A DNA stretch of 6,081 nt from a virus: IMG/VR virus record IMGVR_UViG_3300029492_000060, positions 1 through 6,081 of that record; one strand, written 5' to 3'. The notes beneath the pieces are model-generated. The model ran no database searches. It was not told the origin of the DNA and was given only the letters and a program-made list of their open reading frames with translations. The position numbers and the translations under genes are program-made. Numbering within the stretch: position 1 is the first letter of the stretch; the number at the start of each line of letters is the position of its first letter. Positions 1-6,081 of this stretch are shown here, one piece after another.

Positions 1-77
1 CTTCACACGCATGGACGCCTTTTGAGCACGCTTATGAATACAATAATCACATTGACCACAATCCACGGCAATACGTG
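1..77. repeat. Terminal redundancy, copy 1. Identical to 6005..6081 and marks circular closure of a 6004-nt genome.
   Basis: Read base by base: cttcacacgcatggacgcc...ccacggcaatacgtg occurs at 1..77 and again at 6005..6081 with no mismatch. Both copies lie inside the same reading frame of the Rep gene. Confidence 0.95.
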
Positions 78-156
78 CACCAGAGTAACGATTAGTAATA
101 AACGAACGATACTGACAATGGTCAACCGTTTTCAATAAATCAGGAGAAAATTTCAT
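1..156 (-). CDS. VP4: First 52 codons of the replication initiator (VP4) CDS. It continues across the circular junction into 6004..4481.
   Basis: The reverse complement from the ATG at 156..154 reads MKFSPDLLKTVDHCQYRSFITNRYSGARIAVDCGQCDYCIHKRAQKASMRVK. It is in frame (156-66=90 nt) with the ORF-track 'MDCGQ...' ORF, whose first codon (6070..6068, equivalent to 66..64) is really an internal GTG Val. An in-frame TAA lies at 165..163 upstream, so 156 is the first ATG. The CGQCxxC Cys cluster is typical of microvirus initiator N-termini. Confidence 0.85.
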   Translation of the reverse strand, partial: MKFSPDLLKTVDHCQYRSFITNRYSGARIAVDCGQCDYCIHKRAQKASMRVK

Positions 157-158
157 AA

Positions 159-467
159 TTATTTACGTTTATCAATCACTTGATGTCGATTACGACAACC
201 AAATGAAATGTGAATAAATGTAGGATATAATATCAATTGATCAAATACATGAATATTATCCGAATAACTATGGATATGTTCAAGCAACCGGCTATAAGTA
301 GTAGAGCCATAAGGCTTAATATCAATAGCCTCTCCAAACAAATGCTGCGAATTAGAGACGCCACCGGCAGCCTTATTTTCAGCAATAGAGCGCTTAGCAC
401 TTGTTATCGTAAAATGTAAGTTAAAAGACAACAGATGCTCAAGAAGATCCATAAGAGCACTATTCAT
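159..467 (-). CDS. Small zinc D,D-/L,D-peptidase of the M15 family (Peptidase_M15_3 / VanY-MepK-like fold). Candidate endolysin.
   Basis: ATG at 467..465 and TAA at 161..159, 102 aa. Motifs are ...FTITSAKRSIAENKAAGGVSNSQHLFGEAIDI... (family consensus itSGyRs..N..vGGa.nSqHl.G.AaDi). This gives the H-x6-D zinc ligands (H42 at 344..342, D49 at 323..321) plus the C-terminal FIHISF (H86 at 212..210) matching the fvHvD third ligand. Third-position-T codon usage matches the capsid gene. No signal peptide is present. Confidence 0.8.
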   Translation of the reverse strand: MNSALMDLLEHLLSFNLHFTITSAKRSIAENKAAGGVSNSQHLFGEAIDIKPYGSTTYSRLLEHIHSYSDNIHVFDQLILYPTFIHISFGCRNRHQVIDKRK

Positions 468-547
468 AATCCAATAGCATTAAGAATATAACCAAGAGCT
501 GCAGAAACAGCTCCAATCACAATTTTCCAAATATTATTACTTTTCAT
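464..547 (-). CDS. 27-aa single-pass membrane peptide (MKSNNIWKIVIGAVSAALGYILNAIGL). Holin-like or membrane-trigger candidate.
   Basis: ATG at 547..545. Its TGA (466..464) overlaps the peptidase ATG (467..465) as ATGA. It has a lysine-containing N-terminus followed by a 19-residue hydrophobic stretch. Its codons (agt aat aat att ... gct gtt tct gca gct ctt ggt tat att ctt aat gct att) follow the genome's NNT preference. The upstream part of the 81-aa ORF-track frame does not. Confidence 0.55.
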   Translation of the reverse strand: MKSNNIWKIVIGAVSAALGYILNAIGL

Positions 548-752
548 CACCTTGAATTTTATTACCTTGAATTTTAGATTCAACCTCAACAAAATTATTT
601 TCTTCTTTAATCGAATCCACAATAACAATAAGACCCAACGGAGAAACTCGCTCAGAATAATTTCCAAGACCATTGAGAGAATTAACGATATAAGGCGAAA
701 GAACATCACGACCAGTGTTTTTGTCTTTAACTGAGATAATAAATTTTTGCAT
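537..752 (-). CDS. Hypothetical 71-aa protein. It is the first gene after the promoter and its function is unknown.
   Basis: ATG at 752..750 and TAA at 539..537. NNT-biased codons run throughout (ttt att ... act ggt cgt gat gtt ctt ...). The sequence is non-hydrophobic and beta-strand-like, with a C-terminal KIQGNKIQGD duplication. I recognise no family motif. Confidence 0.65.
   Translation of the reverse strand: MQKFIISVKDKNTGRDVLSPYIVNSLNGLGNYSERVSPLGLIVIVDSIKEENNFVEVESKIQGNKIQGDEK
549..578. repeat. Tandem 15-bp direct repeat (accttgaattttatt / accttgaattttaga).
   Basis: Twelve identical nt (accttgaatttt) occur at 549..560 and 564..575. The repeat encodes KIQGN/KIQGD at the C-terminus of the 71-aa ORF and sits at the overlap with the start of the TM-peptide ORF. 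Confidence 0.8.
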
Positions 753-802
753 AATTGTAAGTTTTTAAAAAATTAATAATAGTTGTAACTTCTAACTGGG
801 GG

Positions 803-833
803 CAAATATACAAACTATTTTCATAAATCCAAA
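803..833 (-). promoter_or_regulatory. Bacteroidetes-type promoter: -33 TTTG (833..830), 19-nt spacer, -7 TATATTTG (810..803).
   Basis: The minus strand reads cTTTGgatttatgaaaatagtttgTATATTTGcc. This matches the Bacteroides primary-sigma consensus -33 TTTG / -7 TAnnTTTG. An A9 tract (plus-strand T-run 842..850) lies just upstream, and the first ATG (752) is about 50 nt downstream. In a manual scan I saw no other full CAAAnnTA match on the plus strand. Confidence 0.55.
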
Positions 834-900
834 GAAAACTATTTTTTTTTAGATTCTACCATAGAGTGTGAGTTGTGCGTTTATAGACAAGAAAAGAGAG

Positions 901-923
901 AATCCGAGAGGATAACTCGGATT
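901..923 (-). terminator. Perfect 8-bp hairpin (aatccgag / ctcggatt, 7-nt loop) followed on the coding strand by CTCTCTTTTCTTG. Candidate intrinsic terminator or structural signal.
   Basis: Arms at 901..908 and 916..923 are exact reverse complements. The hairpin is nested inside a longer imperfect stem (871..879 with 929..939, 9 bp with a 2-nt bulge). A pyrimidine/T-rich tail lies at 900..888 on the minus strand. Confidence 0.4.
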
Positions 924-967
924 TGCTTCGCACACAACTAGGGGCTTCGCTTAATTAACAAGTAAAT

Positions 968-1011
968 GTATATAGGGGTGTATAGGCACGGCAGGTCAGA
1001 TAGAACCTGCC
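968..1011. other. 7-bp hairpin (ggcaggt-cagataga-acctgcc, 990..1011) abutted by two 9-nt direct repeats at 10-nt period (gtatatagg 968..976, gtgtatagg 978..986).
   Basis: The arms are exact reverse complements. The two repeats are 8/9 identical and sit one helical turn apart, 3 nt from the stem. On the coding/viral-sense strand this reads GGCAGGT-TCTATCTG-ACCTGCC-GTG-CCTATACAC-C-CCTATATAC. Confidence 0.5.
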
Positions 1012-1035
1012 TTTGCGCACTCTGTGCTAAAATAC

Positions 1036-1079
1036 CGGAGCGGAACGCTCCTATAAAGAAGTCGCTCCGCTCCGTTTTT
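1036..1079 (-). terminator. GC-rich terminator-like hairpin with alternative pairings. It could work in either direction and lies downstream of VP2.
   Basis: cggagcgga (1036..1044) pairs perfectly (9 bp) with tccgctccg (1066..1074) and is followed by TTTTT (1075..1079) on the plus strand. On the minus strand the compact form GGAGCG-TTC-CGCTCC (1051..1037) is followed by GGTATTTTAG. CGCTCC occurs three times (1046, 1063, 1068) and competes for the single GGAGCG. Confidence 0.45.
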
Positions 1080-1151
1080 CGAACAGGCCCTACGCGGGCG
1101 GCGGGTGCATATCGCTCAAACGCCGCGATGGGCTTCTAGTCCTGAAGTATG

Positions 1152-2267
1152 TCATCTACGGCCTATACTATTACCGATACCTTGGAAAATACGGGTACCG
1201 TAATCAAGAGCATTACGCAATTCATAAGAATTAACGTCTTTCTGTTTCTGTTTAGAACTCCACTTATAATAATCACGTAAAGCCTTATCCTTAGAATATT
1301 CTATGTTCTTAAGAACATTGGTATTCTTAGAATCCCATAGAGAAGACAGACCACGAGCACGATTAGACTGAATATTAGCATAAATCAATGAATCAGCCGT
1401 TTGTTCGGCAATCTTATTACTAATACGAATACCATTTGTTTCAGCAGAAGTCTTAACGGCCTGTGCCATCTGATTTTTATATTGTGCTTCAGAAAGAGCA
1501 CCTTGAGCATAAAGATTAGCCAAAGTCTGACCTTTAATAAACAAATCAGCTTGCTGTTGCTCATCAAGATACTTATTTAATATTTGTTGAGCCTTAGAAT
1601 CGAGTAAAATCTGGGATTCTTGAGCCGAAGTAAGACGACCGGCAAACTCCATATTCTTAAGTTCTTGATACTCCTTAGACTGATCAAGCAAAGCAGACTT
1701 TCTACCAGTAGAGGCATTCCAATAGCCAGACTGGCCAACACCAATATTACGATAATTAGTATCGCCCAAGATCTGTTGCATCTTATACGGAGTAAGAGCA
1801 GCATTCTGTTCCGCATTAATCATGGCAGCACGAGCCTGTGCCATAGAAGCAAGAGCAGTACCAACATCCGAAAAATCGGGGCGGAAAGCCTGTAAACTAG
1901 GAGCAGAAGCAGCAGAAGCAGAAGCACCACCAGAAGCAGGGGCTCTAGAGCCAGCCATAGCAGCAGAACCTTGGACAAACGGGTTTAGACCACGAGAAAT
2001 CATCGCATTAGGAGAATTATAGGAATTGTTCATTCCCCACATTTTCTCCTGCCAATCACGTTGAATCTGTGCCTGTTGAGCATTAAATGCATTATTCTCA
2101 CGATTAATATCGATGCTAGTCTGGTTGGTCTTATTCTGCGAAGAAGCGCCAATAGCATTACCAGCGAGCGAAGCACCAGCAGCAATAATACCACCAAGAA
2201 CAAGCGGAGCAATATGTTTTTCGGAGTGCCCCATTAAGGGGCTTTCTCCGATATCATAGAACCTCAT
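1152..2267 (-). CDS. VP2: Minor capsid / DNA pilot protein VP2.
   Basis: 371 aa. The ATG at 2267..2265 overlaps the upstream TGA (ATGA). The N-terminus is a Gly/Ala-rich hydrophobic segment (IAPLVLGGIIAAGASLAGNAIGA). It is followed by NRENNAFNAQQAQIQRDWQEKMWGMNNSYNSPNAMISRGLNPF, the pattern (N..F...A...R.WQE.M...N.Y.SP......GLNP) I recognise from microvirus VP2 proteins. The rest is coiled-coil-like and Gln/Ala-rich. An alternative start is Met12 (2234). Confidence 0.85.
   Translation of the reverse strand: MRFYDIGESPLMGHSEKHIAPLVLGGIIAAGASLAGNAIGASSQNKTNQTSIDINRENNAFNAQQAQIQRDWQEKMWGMNNSYNSPNAMISRGLNPFVQGSAAMAGSRAPASGGASASAASAPSLQAFRPDFSDVGTALASMAQARAAMINAEQNAALTPYKMQQILGDTNYRNIGVGQSGYWNASTGRKSALLDQSKEYQELKNMEFAGRLTSAQESQILLDSKAQQILNKYLDEQQQADLFIKGQTLANLYAQGALSEAQYKNQMAQAVKTSAETNGIRISNKIAEQTADSLIYANIQSNRARGLSSLWDSKNTNVLKNIEYSKDKALRDYYKWSSKQKQKDVNSYELRNALDYGTRIFQGIGNSIGRR
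1903..1938. repeat. Imperfect (GCAGAA)n low-complexity tract inside VP2.
   Basis: gcagaa gca gcagaa gcagaa gcacca ccagaa gca. It encodes PASGGASASAASAPS on the coding strand and creates the Ala/Glu-rich shadow ORF 1822..2022 on the other strand. Confidence 0.7.
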
Positions 2268-2707
2268 TGAGCAGATGTGTCAGTTGCGGACGAAGAATCG
2301 GGCTCTGACTGTTGCTCTGCCAACATTGCCTGTGCATATTTAGTAAGTTCAGACTGCTCATTAGTCAATTGCTGTAATACAGCCTGTCTTTCAGACATAG
2401 TCTGACAATGACGGGAGATGACACAGCTAAACCGTTCCTCGTCAGTCATGCTATCCATAACAGTTGATTGAGTAGGGTGCATCTGGGCTAAAATATTCTG
2501 AACATTCATATCGCCAAGCAAGCTACGGTATTTCTCCTGATTCAATAGAATCTGTGTCATATCGACTTGAATCAAATCACCATCAAGAGTTTCATCATAC
2601 ATAACCGAATCATACACAGACTTTTGATAACACGGGTCGCCCTCAACCAATTCAGGGACAACATCATTTTTAATGAAATCGGGATTTTTATAAGCAAAAT
2701 TTCTCAT
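2264..2707 (-). CDS. Hypothetical acidic 147-aa protein between VP1 and VP2. Possible internal scaffolding (VP3-like) protein.
   Basis: ATG at 2707..2705. The TGA at 2266..2264 overlaps the VP2 start. NNT codon bias is present. The size, acidic character and position next to the capsid genes resemble VP3 of non-phiX microviruses, but I recognise no diagnostic motif. The functional call is by position only. Confidence 0.7.
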   Translation of the reverse strand: MRNFAYKNPDFIKNDVVPELVEGDPCYQKSVYDSVMYDETLDGDLIQVDMTQILLNQEKYRSLLGDMNVQNILAQMHPTQSTVMDSMTDEERFSCVISRHCQTMSERQAVLQQLTNEQSELTKYAQAMLAEQQSEPDSSSATDTSAQ

Positions 2708-2719
2708 AACGACACATAA

Positions 2720-4462
2720 TTAATAAGGTAAACCATTTCTATCCAAGTTCTGAACAGCATATACTTGGAAATTAACATTACACAACAACTGGTCAAACGC
2801 AACAGAGCAATTAGCAGCATCAATTTGCGGAGCAAATATAGAATTCAACTGTTGAGGACGTACCTTCATGGATTGATAAGACCAAGCACCAGCAGAAGTC
2901 AACACTTGCCAACCATCAAGAGGAGCAACCCAAGATTGATAAGCAGCACCAGCACGGAATCCAGCGTGAACAGTATCAATATTAGATTTCCATTGCCAAT
3001 AGCGGAGGTTATAACCAAGAGAACCGGAAACATTACGGCCGGGGTTATTCTGAAGATTCAGAGCAGGAACAGCTTGCATGCCAAGCTGATCAAATGCAGG
3101 TTGCGGGAAGTCAGATATAGCGGTCACAGTCAATTGAGGAGCCTGACCAGTCAGATTCCAATCCAACATAGGTACAGCGTGATAGACACACATAATCACC
3201 TGATGTTCAGCGCCACAGTCATAAGTAATAGTATGTCCAGAGTTACTAGATACACCTTTACCAGCAATAGAAGCCTGAGAGGAATCGGTATCAAGATTAG
3301 TATTAACTACCTCATTAATATTAATAACACTAGACCAGCCTCCAATATAATGGGAATGATTACCCATATATTCGGGAGCCTTGATACCAAATTGGGCAGC
3401 CATCTGATCTGAATAATCCTTACTAGAGAACTGAACTACCTCTTTCCAGCGTTGAAGATACTCTGTTGCACGAATTGAAAGGGCGGAAAGGTCAGTATTG
3501 ACACGAAGCAGGCTATCAGAATTAGTAGAGTTGGATGAAGTTGTCTGCACAGTATTACCGCTAGCAGGATTACGAACAGATGAATTACTAATACCATCAG
3601 TAGCACGAGCCAAAACAACATTAGTAGGTAGCGTTCTGTCAAGAGGCGAAAGGAGCGCTACTGAACCATACTGAGACGAGGGAAGCATACCCATAAAATA
3701 ATCCTTCGGATAGTTTGCATAGCGCAATTTAACCATATCCGTAACTAATGAAATCTGGCCAGAACCGGACCAATAGTCAACATTGTAAGCATAAGCCAAA
3801 TGTTTCTCCCATTGAGAATTGCTATAGAAATCATAGTAAATCTTCTGATAAGCAAGGAATGGAAGGGCATTAACTGTCTGCGAATTCTGATAAACCAAAG
3901 GATTAGCAGCATCACCAAGAGCATCAACACCTAGATATTTTTTAGTAATAGCAGCCTTACCTGTATTAGTACTAGCAATCATAGAACCATAGCCAAGCAA
4001 ATCAAGCAATTTGCAAGAACCATAGACAATAGGGAGGCCTGCATCGTCACGGGTATTAGTTTGGTCACCAGCATTAGCCGTCTGAAGGAACACATTAAAA
4101 AGGCTCTGAGTAACATTAGGTACAGAAGTAAGCACAGACGTATTCGCAGTAGAACTAGCCGCGCTAGTCATATAGTCCGTCATCTGCGTAAATGCCTGTG
4201 GAAGCGCACGAGAAATCAGACGTAACGGCACAGCATAGAAGTCATAATATTCCTTGATACGAGTATAAGCAGCCGTATTAACCGGAACAGTACGGGTAAA
4301 CCAATCCGAAGAAATACGATACTTGTTGCCGGGAATAGCAATCTGCCAATAGCAAGGAAGAATTTCACCTACTTTAGCTGTAAACAATTTTTTCGAACTT
4401 AAATCGAAAGAGGACCGATGGGTAGGAATCTTAGCATGGTCCAAAGGGTTAAAATCACTCAT
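2720..4462 (-). CDS. VP1: Major capsid protein VP1 (phiX174 F-like jelly-roll).
   Basis: 580 aa, ATG at 4462..4460. The N-terminus SSFDLSSKKLFTAKVGEILPCYWQIAIPGNKYRISSDWFTRTVPVNTAAYTRIKEYYDFYAVPLRLI matches the microvirus VP1 signature (fdlS....t...G.L.P....v.PGd......f.R..P......i....ffFVP.Rl.w). NNT codon bias is very strong. It is the longest ORF in the genome. Confidence 0.92.
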   Translation of the reverse strand: MSDFNPLDHAKIPTHRSSFDLSSKKLFTAKVGEILPCYWQIAIPGNKYRISSDWFTRTVPVNTAAYTRIKEYYDFYAVPLRLISRALPQAFTQMTDYMTSAASSTANTSVLTSVPNVTQSLFNVFLQTANAGDQTNTRDDAGLPIVYGSCKLLDLLGYGSMIASTNTGKAAITKKYLGVDALGDAANPLVYQNSQTVNALPFLAYQKIYYDFYSNSQWEKHLAYAYNVDYWSGSGQISLVTDMVKLRYANYPKDYFMGMLPSSQYGSVALLSPLDRTLPTNVVLARATDGISNSSVRNPASGNTVQTTSSNSTNSDSLLRVNTDLSALSIRATEYLQRWKEVVQFSSKDYSDQMAAQFGIKAPEYMGNHSHYIGGWSSVININEVVNTNLDTDSSQASIAGKGVSSNSGHTITYDCGAEHQVIMCVYHAVPMLDWNLTGQAPQLTVTAISDFPQPAFDQLGMQAVPALNLQNNPGRNVSGSLGYNLRYWQWKSNIDTVHAGFRAGAAYQSWVAPLDGWQVLTSAGAWSYQSMKVRPQQLNSIFAPQIDAANCSVAFDQLLCNVNFQVYAVQNLDRNGLPY

Positions 4463-4480
4463 AATTAATTAATATTAAAA

Positions 4481-6079
4481 TTAAACCATACGATTGAAAA
4501 TATTATTAGCATCATTAAGCTTCTTATGCTTAATCATATCACGACAGAATGTTGCACTACGATACCGGAGTTGCTCAAGAAGTTGAACCGTTTCACATGA
4601 AACGTCCGACAAGACATCACGCTCCTGCCCGTTCGCAGGCAACGCAAACATACAATCCGATATGTCCGGGTTAGCGGAGCGTATGTTGAATACATCTCGT
4701 AAATTTTCATAATCCTTTTTCTTCTCATAGTCTATACCTGTTTTAATGATAAACATAATACGACCGGAAAAAGCACTAATATCAGAACCGAAGGAAGGCA
4801 AATGCCAATTACGGAAGAACTTAAAGACATATAAGAATAACCGATATAACTTATTAATAAAAGACTTAATATCGACATCGCTAGAACAGTTAACAAACCT
4901 AGTAAGACACCGAGAAGAATGTAATATAATCTTGTCATCATCAGTAAGAATAGGATTAACTTTAAGATATTGGTAATAAGTACGAACAAGGCTCAAGACT
5001 GAATCCTGTTTATAGTCGATGAATCCATATTTTGCAATTCTTTGCGGCGTCCGGTGAACAGCACGAAGAATTCTAGCAACCGCAATACTATCGTCATTGC
5101 GAGCAGACGAGAATCGGGGCAATAGGGTACGGATATACGACATGGGTGGAGTTGACCGAACACTGATGCCGTTGAAGTTATAGACTCTTCCGTTAACGAC
5201 AGAATCGATTTTTTGTTCAATCTGCGCATAAGGGTCTTCACCTTCCAAGAAATCACAACCTTTTTCAAAGAATCCAAGAGAAGCCCTCGACCGGGGTTTA
5301 AATGAGCGGCATGAGCGATATAATAGGGGAGCAGAACTAAGGCTGTTAACGTAACTCGCAACGTACGAACTAGCTCCACCAGCGGAACGTTGGAAATCTG
5401 AACGACCGAGTTTCCAACTCTTACCGTGACAGTATCGTAAAACCTCGGCGACTTTGTCCGAGTTTGTGAATAATAAGAGATGATAATGCGGGCGGAAATG
5501 CACGGGTCCATACTCGCCCACAGCGTAGAAATGTAGCGGTTCATAAGAGCCTAATTTTAAAGATAAATGTTTACGCAAACGCTTAACATAATTCTGAACA
5601 TCAACATAATTTAAGAAGGGAATAAGATTATCACGACCGTATTGTAAAGAAACGGGATAATCCGTTTTTTCAACGGCCTGCGTCTTAGTGATAAAACTAC
5701 GAATAGCATCCATACTAAGAAACCAATTATCCCTAATAGGAACATATTCTTTAATCTCGCGGTCATACGGTACAGTACCCTGTACTTGTTCGAAAAAAAT
5801 ATGACGCAACACGGAGCTATCATCACATTGATACCCAGAAACGGGAATATATTTATGATATTCATCACCAAAATGAATATCTCCTGAGATACCTACAACG
5901 TCCTCATATTCACTATGTAGAACTTTACAATTAAATAAAGGAATATGTTCGTTATCATACGTAAGTGTCACAAAATAAGAATACTTAAAGGCACTTCCAG
6001 CGGTCTTCACACGCATGGACGCCTTTTGAGCACGCTTATGAATACAATAATCACATTGACCACAATCCACGGCAATACG
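4481..6079 (-). CDS. VP4: Replication initiation protein VP4 (HUH rolling-circle endonuclease, phiX174 gpA-like). The 5' end runs off the window edge and is completed by 156..1. Full length is 559 aa.
   Basis: Motif I is FVTLTYD (5974..5954). The HUH motif is HYHLLLF (5488..5468). The two-tyrosine motif is YVASYVNS (5365..5342; compare phiX174 gpA YVAKYVNK). The TAA stop is at 4483..4481. The frame stays open to the window end and joins the ATG at 156 through the 77-nt overlap. Confidence 0.93.
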   Translation of the reverse strand, partial: RIAVDCGQCDYCIHKRAQKASMRVKTAGSAFKYSYFVTLTYDNEHIPLFNCKVLHSEYEDVVGISGDIHFGDEYHKYIPVSGYQCDDSSVLRHIFFEQVQGTVPYDREIKEYVPIRDNWFLSMDAIRSFITKTQAVEKTDYPVSLQYGRDNLIPFLNYVDVQNYVKRLRKHLSLKLGSYEPLHFYAVGEYGPVHFRPHYHLLLFTNSDKVAEVLRYCHGKSWKLGRSDFQRSAGGASSYVASYVNSLSSAPLLYRSCRSFKPRSRASLGFFEKGCDFLEGEDPYAQIEQKIDSVVNGRVYNFNGISVRSTPPMSYIRTLLPRFSSARNDDSIAVARILRAVHRTPQRIAKYGFIDYKQDSVLSLVRTYYQYLKVNPILTDDDKIILHSSRCLTRFVNCSSDVDIKSFINKLYRLFLYVFKFFRNWHLPSFGSDISAFSGRIMFIIKTGIDYEKKKDYENLRDVFNIRSANPDISDCMFALPANGQERDVLSDVSCETVQLLEQLRYRSATFCRDMIKHKKLNDANNIFNRMV

Positions 6080-6081
6080 TG

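Follow-up and report, generated by a model that had tools for sequence, protein, structure and literature searches.

We analyzed a stretch of virus DNA of 6,081 nucleotides (nt), IMG/VR record IMGVR_UViG_3300029492_000060 at positions 1 to 6,081 (hereafter the window, to which all coordinates refer), with a focus on a gene for a small zinc peptidase and on an unannotated gene for a small membrane protein directly upstream of it. The same 77 nt stand at both ends of the window (6005..6081 identical to 1..77, an exact direct repeat representing assembly overlap), so that the window is a complete circular assembly with a true length of 6,004 nt. Every gene lies on the minus strand. The locus is a run of three genes upstream of the Rep gene, which starts with a gene for a conserved protein of 71 amino acids (aa; 537..752) and continues with an unannotated open reading frame (ORF) of 27 aa with a single transmembrane (TM) segment (464..547) and the gene for a short-form M15A peptidase of 102 aa (159..467). 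The 71-aa gene also hosts an overprinted frame, a candidate long form of the membrane ORF of 80 aa (464..706).

The short-form M15 peptidase

The peptidase ORF comprises 102 codons and a TAA stop and begins with an ATG at position 467 (467..159, minus strand); the protein is not longer, because an in-frame stop lies four codons upstream of this ATG. The gene occupies 309 of 6,004 nt, or 5.1% of the genome, as estimated in an original prediction made from the sequence alone (about 5% of the coding capacity). The product matched Pfam PF08291 (Peptidase_M15_3) at 40.1 bits (E = 4.3e-10; curated gathering cut-off, 23.2 bits) and PHROG 894 "endolysin" (E = 1.8e-15), and among the profiles suggested in that prediction only PF08291 passed, the thresholds of PF13539 (16.8 bits against a cut-off of 25) and PF02557 being missed. 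When 1.84 billion representative proteins were searched exhaustively, 501 matched at E <= 0.001, and 117 of these homologues were aligned for conservation analysis. S40, H42, A47, D49, and H86 were invariant across the 117 homologues, and S23, R26, N31, G36, G45, Q77, and I79 were conserved in at least 90%. The full H-x6-D...H triad described in the original prediction, located in the motifs SNSQH42LFGEAID49I and FIH86ISF, is therefore borne out. The profile of the 117 homologues matched the Streptomyces albus Zn D-Ala-D-Ala carboxypeptidase (PDB ID: 1lbu) with an E value of 5.9e-14, and pairwise alignment equated H42 with H154 and D49 with D161, both quoted as zinc ligands of that enzyme (PMC5025407). 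In the same profile search, H86 fell on the His that binds zinc in Sonic hedgehog, a protein of the same fold. H42, D49, and H86 are the predicted zinc ligands of the peptidase.

Structural prediction with AlphaFold2 (AF2) yielded a model with a predicted local distance difference test (pLDDT) score of 96.4 and a predicted TM-score (pTM) of 0.87. The Foldseek neighbors of this model in the PDB were of the DD-peptidase fold: 1lbu (E = 2.7e-4; root mean square deviation, 2.3 Å), the L-Ala-D-Glu endopeptidase ChiX (TM-score, 0.69), VanY, the RB49 endolysin, and hedgehog N-domains. Matches in BFVD were phage (caudoviral) and microviral "Peptidase M15" proteins. The protein is a member of MEROPS M15A/Pfam Peptidase_M15_3 in clan MD, with the LAS or Hedgehog/DD-peptidase fold. 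1lbu was the best match among solved structures by both sequence and structure, and its H-x6-D ligands and the Arg of its S-x-x-R motif aligned residue for residue. It differs in its length of 213 aa and in an extra N-terminal domain, which we take to be a peptidoglycan-binding domain; the alignment extends over no more than 78 columns, with 28% identity, and the C-terminal motif of the peptidase is F-I-H. The second LAS motif, H-x-H, the first His of which lies in the active site, is not present in this form: F84-I85-H86 aligns to H-I-H of Sonic hedgehog, and at position 84, 92 of the 117 homologues have F, 17 have W, and six have H. As a separate variation, in the lineage of contigs L010 and L133 the residue at position 47, which lies between the two ligands of the H-x6-D motif and is otherwise an invariant Ala, is Val (…HLFGEVIDI…).

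The PF08291 match begins at profile position 29 of 108, and the segment corresponding to positions 1–28 ("nFtlsEl...") is absent. Relatives of the peptidase are typically 125–150 aa long and carry a median N-terminal extension of 33 residues. The peptidase is a truncated family member, not a non-member, and its description as minimal holds. Neither a signal peptide nor a lipobox nor a TM segment was found in the protein (maximum Kyte–Doolittle 19-residue mean, 1.05), in line with the earlier statement that a signal peptide is lacking. The ratio of nonsynonymous to synonymous substitution rates (dN/dS; NG86) was 0.19. Its catalytic activity and bond specificity are putative. A related M15_3 peptidase was encountered outside the microviruses, on a 5.8-kb element (Logan contigs L169 and L170, encoding P0165) with a phage-integrase gene, helix-turn-helix regulators, and a faint Rep_trans match; the called product P0165 of 93 aa is probably a long-form peptidase with a missed start.

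Peptidases of this kind have been known in microviruses for some time. PF08291 peptidases were reported in 11 human-associated microviruses, comprising six Alpavirinae and five Gokushovirinae, for which horizontal acquisition was argued and an endolysin role proposed (Roux et al., 2012; PMC3394797). The M15_3 peptidases of these gut viruses share the Pfam family, the virus family, and the proposed role with the peptidase studied here, and the "sporadic reports" mentioned in the original prediction are real and specific. Peptidases were later described as one of two recurrent classes of microviral accessory genes, with the peptidase gene moving between families (Kirchberger et al., 2022; PMC9239249). 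An M15 peptidase is also present in isolates of the marine Occultatumvirinae, and phiHBP1, the first cultured microvirus of Bacteroides fragilis, encodes an "M15A family metallopeptidase" (PMC13064476). GenBank relatives (Dulem, bajarodmic, and "Microvirus sp." genomes) label this very gene "peptidase", and its homologues form 1,882 clusters at 90% identity in the protein database, the best 120 of which are 101–106 aa long, nearly all 102 aa, with many on contigs of approximately 6 kb. The original prediction of an M15-type zinc peptidase in a microvirus, whose genome indeed encodes VP1, VP2, and the VP4 Rep, was a correct identification of a known gene class, and the novelty that it implied was overstated. 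In the closest microvirus genomes, the peptidase gene likewise lies directly upstream of Rep. phiHBP1 and several other microviruses differ in encoding a long form of 134–160 aa that is placed elsewhere, whereas the protein in the window has approximately 100 aa and lacks the N-terminal third.

PF08291 endolysins of double-stranded DNA (dsDNA) phages were 41–46% identical to the peptidase over the core. The purified enzyme of Burkholderia phage ST79 degrades sacculi in zymogram and turbidity assays (PMC5025407), and the homologue of Stenotrophomonas phage Siara is encoded in an annotated endolysin-holin-holin-i-spanin-o-spanin cassette. The ST79 "peptidase M15A" and the Siara "endolysin endopeptidase" are likewise single catalytic domains without a wall-binding domain, encoded beside small membrane proteins. 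They differ in length (146–149 aa), in retaining the N-terminal segment, and in having recognizable holin/antiholin and spanin partners; the partner in the window is a protein of 27 aa or 73–80 aa belonging to no known family, and no spanin was seen. An endolysin-like role, as proposed in the original prediction, is suggested by the PHROG 894 match, the Siara cassette, and the muralytic activity of the ST79 relative, and Roux et al. (2012) came to the same conclusion.

The unannotated membrane-protein gene

The 27-codon ORF (547..464, minus strand; MKSNNIWKIVIGAVSAALGYILNAIGL) occupies what GenBank records leave as an unannotated gap of 69 nt between the 71-aa ORF and the peptidase. Its ATG overlaps the 3' end of the 71-aa gene, and its TGA stop overlaps the peptidase ATG in an ATGA junction. 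The ORF with this -4 overlap was present in 119 of 119 matches carrying the peptidase and was kept in all 39 IMG/VR relatives of the peptidase, in one of them with a GTG start. A back-translated core pattern of the ORF occurred in 107 stretches in IMG/VR, all of which lay on microvirus contigs of approximately 6 kb except one chance match in a tape-measure-like gene. Codon-position entropy was 0.19/0.09/0.69, third positions varied in 24 of the 27 codons, and a serine codon switched between TCT and AGT. The 27-aa ORF had a dN/dS of 0.07 compared with 0.19 for the peptidase (NG86), both values showing purifying selection, and a mean amino-acid identity of 92% compared with 76%. Taken together, these data show that the 27-aa ORF is clearly coding.

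Homologous peptides of 26–30 aa with a basic N-terminus, a Trp, and a helix rich in small residues preceded the short-form peptidase in every divergent lineage examined (Dulem 226, 238, 243, and 257, Microvirus mar56 and mar62, bajarodmic 1134, and the contigs encoding P0142, P0136, and P0145), down to 40% peptidase identity. Inspection by eye of the long-form-peptidase microviruses phiHBP1, bajarodmic 635, and D_HF5_96 revealed no obvious upstream TM peptide. Depending on the lineage, the TM peptide and the peptidase meet in an ATGA or are separated by 3 nt or by several codons, a variation that points to two translationally coupled polypeptides and against a frameshift fusion. A programmed frameshift joining the two into a signal-anchor endolysin was rejected on account of this variation and of the lack of a slippery site. 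Also discarded was the possibility that the TM peptide is a split-off N-terminal piece of the long-form peptidase, the corresponding segment of which is polar ("nFtlsEl...") and unrelated. In three GenBank records (PP511322, PP511396, and PP511332; L005 at 1827-2201, L048 and L049 at 838-1212), a coding sequence of 124 aa annotated as "peptidase" or "hypothetical protein" begins at an upstream ATG and adds 21 residues (MEDYHWSCF...), the codons of which overlap the TM ORF in a different frame. As homologues begin at the Met of MN.., this start was probably misassigned and hides the small gene. We did not find the coupled membrane ORF described in the open-access and bioRxiv literature, and a description in a subscription journal is possible. 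The membrane-protein gene upstream of the peptidase is apparently undescribed and largely unannotated, with strong evolutionary support.

The reading frame of the 27-aa ORF runs 53 codons further upstream, in the +1 frame over codons 16–71 of the 71-aa gene. This long form (706..464) comprises 80 aa from the ATG at 706, or 81 aa from a GTG at 709; the product is 73 aa in most genomes (consensus: MLFRLILSILSMVLEIILSEFLRWVLLLLWIRLKKKMILLNLKLKVMKSNNIWKIVIGAVSAALGYILNAIGL) and reaches 80 aa in the window through a 7-codon insertion. The Kyte–Doolittle 19-residue mean exceeds 1.6 at residues 1–31 and 61–80, between which lies a loop rich in Lys and Arg. Openness of the +1 frame was dropped as evidence of coding: +1 frames are open for 50–180 codons in all genes of this genome, and they are open and hydrophobic genome-wide because 58–61% of third positions are T. 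Conservation of four-fold degenerate sites was used as the coding test in its place, with codon alignments of approximately 98 related genomes and a baseline of 281 sites from VP1, VP2, the 147-aa gene, and the peptidase. Baseline sites had a mean third-position entropy of 0.93–1.09, and 1.4% were near-invariant; in codons 16–52 of the 71-aa gene, the mean entropy was 0.36, and 47% were near-invariant (Fisher p = 5e-8; Mann–Whitney p = 7e-7). The synonymous rate (dS) was 0.26 for codons 17–55 of the 71-aa gene, below the 0.63 of its codons 1–16, the 0.64 of the 27-aa ORF, and the 0.89 of the peptidase. The frozen sites were interleaved with variable first positions, as second positions of the +1 frame would look. 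The +1 ATG, formed from the Asp16-Val17 codons of the 71-aa gene, was kept in 94 of 98 genomes and was retained in Dulem 243 although the host-frame Asp is replaced by Asn there; the long-form sequence itself was also well conserved across these genomes. The internal Met at which the 27-aa form starts was kept in every lineage, including those with different residues in the overlapping host frame. As a database query, the 80-aa long form matched 217 clusters, all "hypothetical" or spuriously named, so that gene callers have now and then predicted it.

These patterns make it probable that the long form is an overprinted two-helix membrane protein in this lineage, and products from both starts, of 27 aa and of 73–80 aa, may exist. 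We also considered that the synonymous sites are frozen by an element acting at the nucleic-acid level (promoter, origin or packaging signal, or mRNA structure) and that only the 27-aa peptide is made. The T-rich third positions, which open +1 frames throughout the genome and leave openness uninformative, the stops that interrupt the extension in L051 and L167, and the poor conservation of the extension between lineages are consistent with such an element. An element of this kind would not readily account for frozen sites scattered codon by codon amid variable first positions in a +1 second-position pattern, for the preservation of the non-hydrophobic +1-frame residues E, R, and W, or for a +1 ATG kept in 94 of 98 genomes, even where the host-frame Asp becomes Asn, and we consider it rather unlikely.

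The 71-aa protein itself had 2,847 database clusters, a wider spread than that of the peptidase, and no match in Pfam, PHROG, or NCBIfam. The dN/dS of codons 1–16 of its gene was 0.10. An AF2 model showed a small beta sheet (pLDDT, 73), for which Foldseek returned nothing below an E value of 0.6. The 7-codon insertion lies at approximately 548..580 in this genome and a few near-identical ones, relative to most relatives, and by eye resembles a local duplication, with two copies of ACCTTGAATTTTA. The insertion makes the 71-aa protein (…KIQGNKIQGDEK) longer, extends the basic loop of the overprinted ORF as well, and leaves both frames open.

Seven IMG/VR contigs (L085, L096, L103, L105, L115, L128, and L149) encode the membrane ORF, with both the long and the short frame, without the peptidase; the six with listed names stem from four metagenome datasets. 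Rep begins approximately 55 nt downstream of the membrane ORF in these contigs, with nothing of the peptidase between, and a tblastn search for the peptidase across the seven contigs found it nowhere. L096 is a complete circle with a terminal repeat of 99 nt. IMGVR_UViG_3300045988_000161 is an example of a naturally peptidase-less variant. The Rep proteins of the seven contigs were 81–89% identical to that of the window, compared with a median of 83% for peptidase carriers. As these identities are at or above the carrier median, the seven contigs fall within the same clade, and loss of the peptidase is the simplest explanation. The sequences suggest that the peptidase is dispensable in close relatives, and the gene looks accessory because these relatives lost it and kept the membrane gene.

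Genome organization, relatives, and host

The Rep (VP4) gene, identified by circular translation and by matches to Pfam PF23343 and PHROG 942, begins with an ATG at position 156, 2 nt past the peptidase stop. Its 5' end occupies 1..156, and the gene crosses the circular junction into 6004..4481. The window ends split it, and a linear ORF listing gives a GTG-started fragment of 529 aa in place of the 559-aa protein. The other genes, also on the minus strand, encode the major capsid protein VP1 (4462..2720), which matched Pfam Phage_F and PHROG 514, a 147-aa protein (2707..2264), and the pilot protein VP2 (2267..1152; Pfam and PHROG scans). The stretch of approximately 400 nt at 753..1151 is non-coding, with no convincing ORF and a higher GC content (0.41–0.42). 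It includes G+C-rich inverted repeats at 1031-1047/1063-1079 and, on the coding strand, terminator-like hairpins at 1051..1037 and 923..901; it had no Rfam match and could harbor an origin, a promoter, or a terminator. Scanning the whole window for Rfam families, tRNAs, and tandem repeats gave nothing relevant. Rep contains a further ORF of 183 aa (4993..5544, minus strand) in its +1 frame over approximately codons 206–390. Across this ORF, 40% of the four-fold sites of Rep were near-invariant, compared with 5% in codons 1–205, with minima within the overlap at codons 241–280 and 321–360, and an ORF of identical length was found in at least 27 related genomes. The Rep-embedded ORF had no Pfam or PHROG match. 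It may represent another overprinted gene of this genome, comparable to B or K within A of phiX174.

The closest GenBank records were uncultured Microviridae from dog feces (87% nucleotide identity) and "Dulem" microviruses from lemur feces. Identity to phiHBP1 was 33% for VP1 and 30% for Rep. A single VP1 query against 185,579 genomes, searched for prophages that could indicate the host, gave no match; a VP1 profile matched distant prophage-like loci with 27–31% identity in Prevotella, Paraprevotella, Xylanibacter, and other Bacteroidales genomes, and none of these loci carried the short peptidase. From the VP1 and Rep identities to phiHBP1 and the VP1 profile matches to the Bacteroidales prophage-like loci, the virus is probably an Alpavirinae-like gut microvirus; the comparison group is Family 5 of Kirchberger et al. 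(2022). Its host is likely a member of Bacteroidales. One further contig, L007 (IMGVR_UViG_3300045988_183911; 8,459 nt), encodes a peptidase 100% identical to that of the window, spans 1.4 genome lengths, and presumably represents the same virus assembled as a concatemer.

A candidate lysis module

We lean, with slightly more than even confidence, toward reading the locus as a small late lysis module, consisting of a holin- or amurin-like membrane protein and an optional M15A endolysin. In such a module, the membrane protein and the peptidase would be produced together, with translation coupled through the ATGA stop/start. The peptidase would be synthesized in the cytoplasm without an export signal, and the membrane protein would either breach the inner membrane as a holin or block wall synthesis in the manner of phiX174 E. 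The peptidase would then gain access to murein, cleave peptide stems or cross-links, and speed or complete the release of the 26-nm particles, acting as an accessory booster and not as the core of the strategy. The lysis role of the peptidase and any role of the membrane protein are drawn here from sequence and analogy and stay putative. The original prediction had noted that a peptidase without a signal peptide would need a membrane lesion; the likely source of that lesion, which it missed, is encoded just upstream. It had also proposed a different lysis or entry strategy on the basis of the peptidase. Entry found no specific support, and a distinct lysis strategy would not be defined by the peptidase alone, which close relatives lack.

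The membrane ORF has the size, topology, and position of a holin, being small, containing at least one TM helix, and adjoining a lysin gene. Two known systems provide useful comparisons. In phiX174, gene E lies in the +1 frame of the scaffolding gene D and encodes a TM-helix inhibitor of MraY. Like E, the membrane gene studied here is a small membrane-protein gene in the +1 frame of another microviral gene that is missed by standard annotation; unlike E, it encodes two hydrophobic segments or a single helix of 27 aa, outruns its host gene, and is coupled to a muralytic enzyme, which is absent from phiX174. Pfam and PHROG searches revealed no similarity to known lysis families; phiX174 E itself was not directly aligned. 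Class II holins or pinholins, such as S68 of phage 21, have two TM helices and dual-start holin/antiholin products. The membrane ORF resembles S68 in its length of approximately 70–80 aa, its two hydrophobic helices, its position adjoining a lysin gene, and its two possible in-frame starts. It differs in that the starts are 53 codons apart and not two or three, and in that charge is placed in the central loop and not in a C-terminal tail, and no homology was found.

Several observations weigh against a lysis module. The upstream ORF matched no holin family and nothing in Pfam, PHROG, or NCBIfam, lacks the charged C-terminal tail usual in holins, ending at its hydrophobic helix (...NAIGL), and at 27 aa would to our knowledge be smaller than any known holin. 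In Dulem 257 and the P0136 lineage (L051 and L167), stop codons shut the upstream extension and leave only a peptide of 28–29 aa. A Gram-negative host also needs disruption of the outer membrane, and no spanin-like gene was seen in the window. The general base of the peptidase is not obvious, because position 84 is Phe or Trp and no acid stands three residues before H86. Loss of the peptidase in viable-looking relatives weakens it as the definer of a lysis strategy, and a membrane gene kept without it would also fit a function other than lysis.

The natural peptidase-less variants give some weight to the membrane protein as the primary effector, and one alternative overlaps our preferred explanation and differs solely in which partner is decisive: the membrane protein would be the real lysis effector, an amurin like phiX174 E or LysM, and the peptidase would clear the sacculus afterwards or serve otherwise. 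Seven close relatives hold the membrane ORF without a peptidase, the long form is overprinted in a +1 frame like gene E inside D, and very small TM lysis peptides exist, such as levivirus LysM, a protein of 37 residues that reportedly targets MurJ (PMC12506998). We nevertheless judge this alternative unlikely, given that Pfam and PHROG searches linked the ORF to no known lysis protein, that no target can be inferred, and that tight translational coupling with a muralytic enzyme marks holin-endolysin pairs and not amurins. That same constant pairing with a TM peptide would be left unexplained if the peptidase stayed in the cytoplasm and attacked murein precursors (D-Ala-D-Ala or UDP-MurNAc-pentapeptide) in the manner of VanX or VanY, starving cross-linking without any membrane lesion. 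The absence of an export signal would suit such a function, the archetype 1lbu is a D-Ala-D-Ala carboxypeptidase, VanY is among the fold matches, and the missing N-terminal subdomain could mean a changed substrate; on the other hand, the characterized PF08291 phage enzyme degrades mature sacculi, and the dsDNA-phage homologues neighbor holins and spanins, so that precursor cleavage appears very unlikely.

The pairing is equally unaccounted for by the entry role raised in the original prediction, in which the peptidase would be a virion-associated enzyme opening murein for the DNA conduit formed by the pilot protein. In dsDNA phages, M15A domains do occur fused to large virion proteins, among them the baseplate hub (Gp5 OB-fold). 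The peptidase of the window is stand-alone, without an extension for binding capsid or pilot protein, is coupled to a membrane protein just before Rep and away from the structural genes, and appears dispensable in close relatives with the same capsid and pilot genes. A T=1 capsid, moreover, has little spare room, and among the readings considered here we regard entry as the least probable. Returning to the lysis module, a more specific version of it can be put forward tentatively, as a possibility to which we give less than even confidence: the unannotated membrane protein, as the 27-aa form, the 73–80-aa form, or both, would be the conserved lysis effector of these gut microviruses, and the peptidase would be a co-evolved, coupled, and optional booster that was lost at least once.

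The peptidase alone adds nothing new, as it is another copy of a gene class reported in microviruses in 2012; the membrane-protein gene and the peptidase-less relatives make the locus more interesting than an ordinary one. The membrane gene escapes annotation because it is below the typical minimum length of gene callers and lies partly inside another gene, a warning to anyone annotating viromes. Synonymous-site conservation allows genes of 6-kb genomes that are short or overprinted to be recovered, now that thousands of related genomes exist. The locus offers a testable hypothesis in three parts, namely a missed tiny membrane gene, a coupled cytoplasmic peptidase, and natural controls without the peptidase. 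Microviruses not belonging to the phiX174 group rank among the most abundant phages of the mammalian gut, and how they lyse their hosts is not yet established experimentally. If the membrane protein is indeed their lysis effector, its 27-aa form would be the smallest holin or amurin known, and the gene would represent a new lysis-protein family and the first defined lysis system of microviruses outside the phiX174 group.

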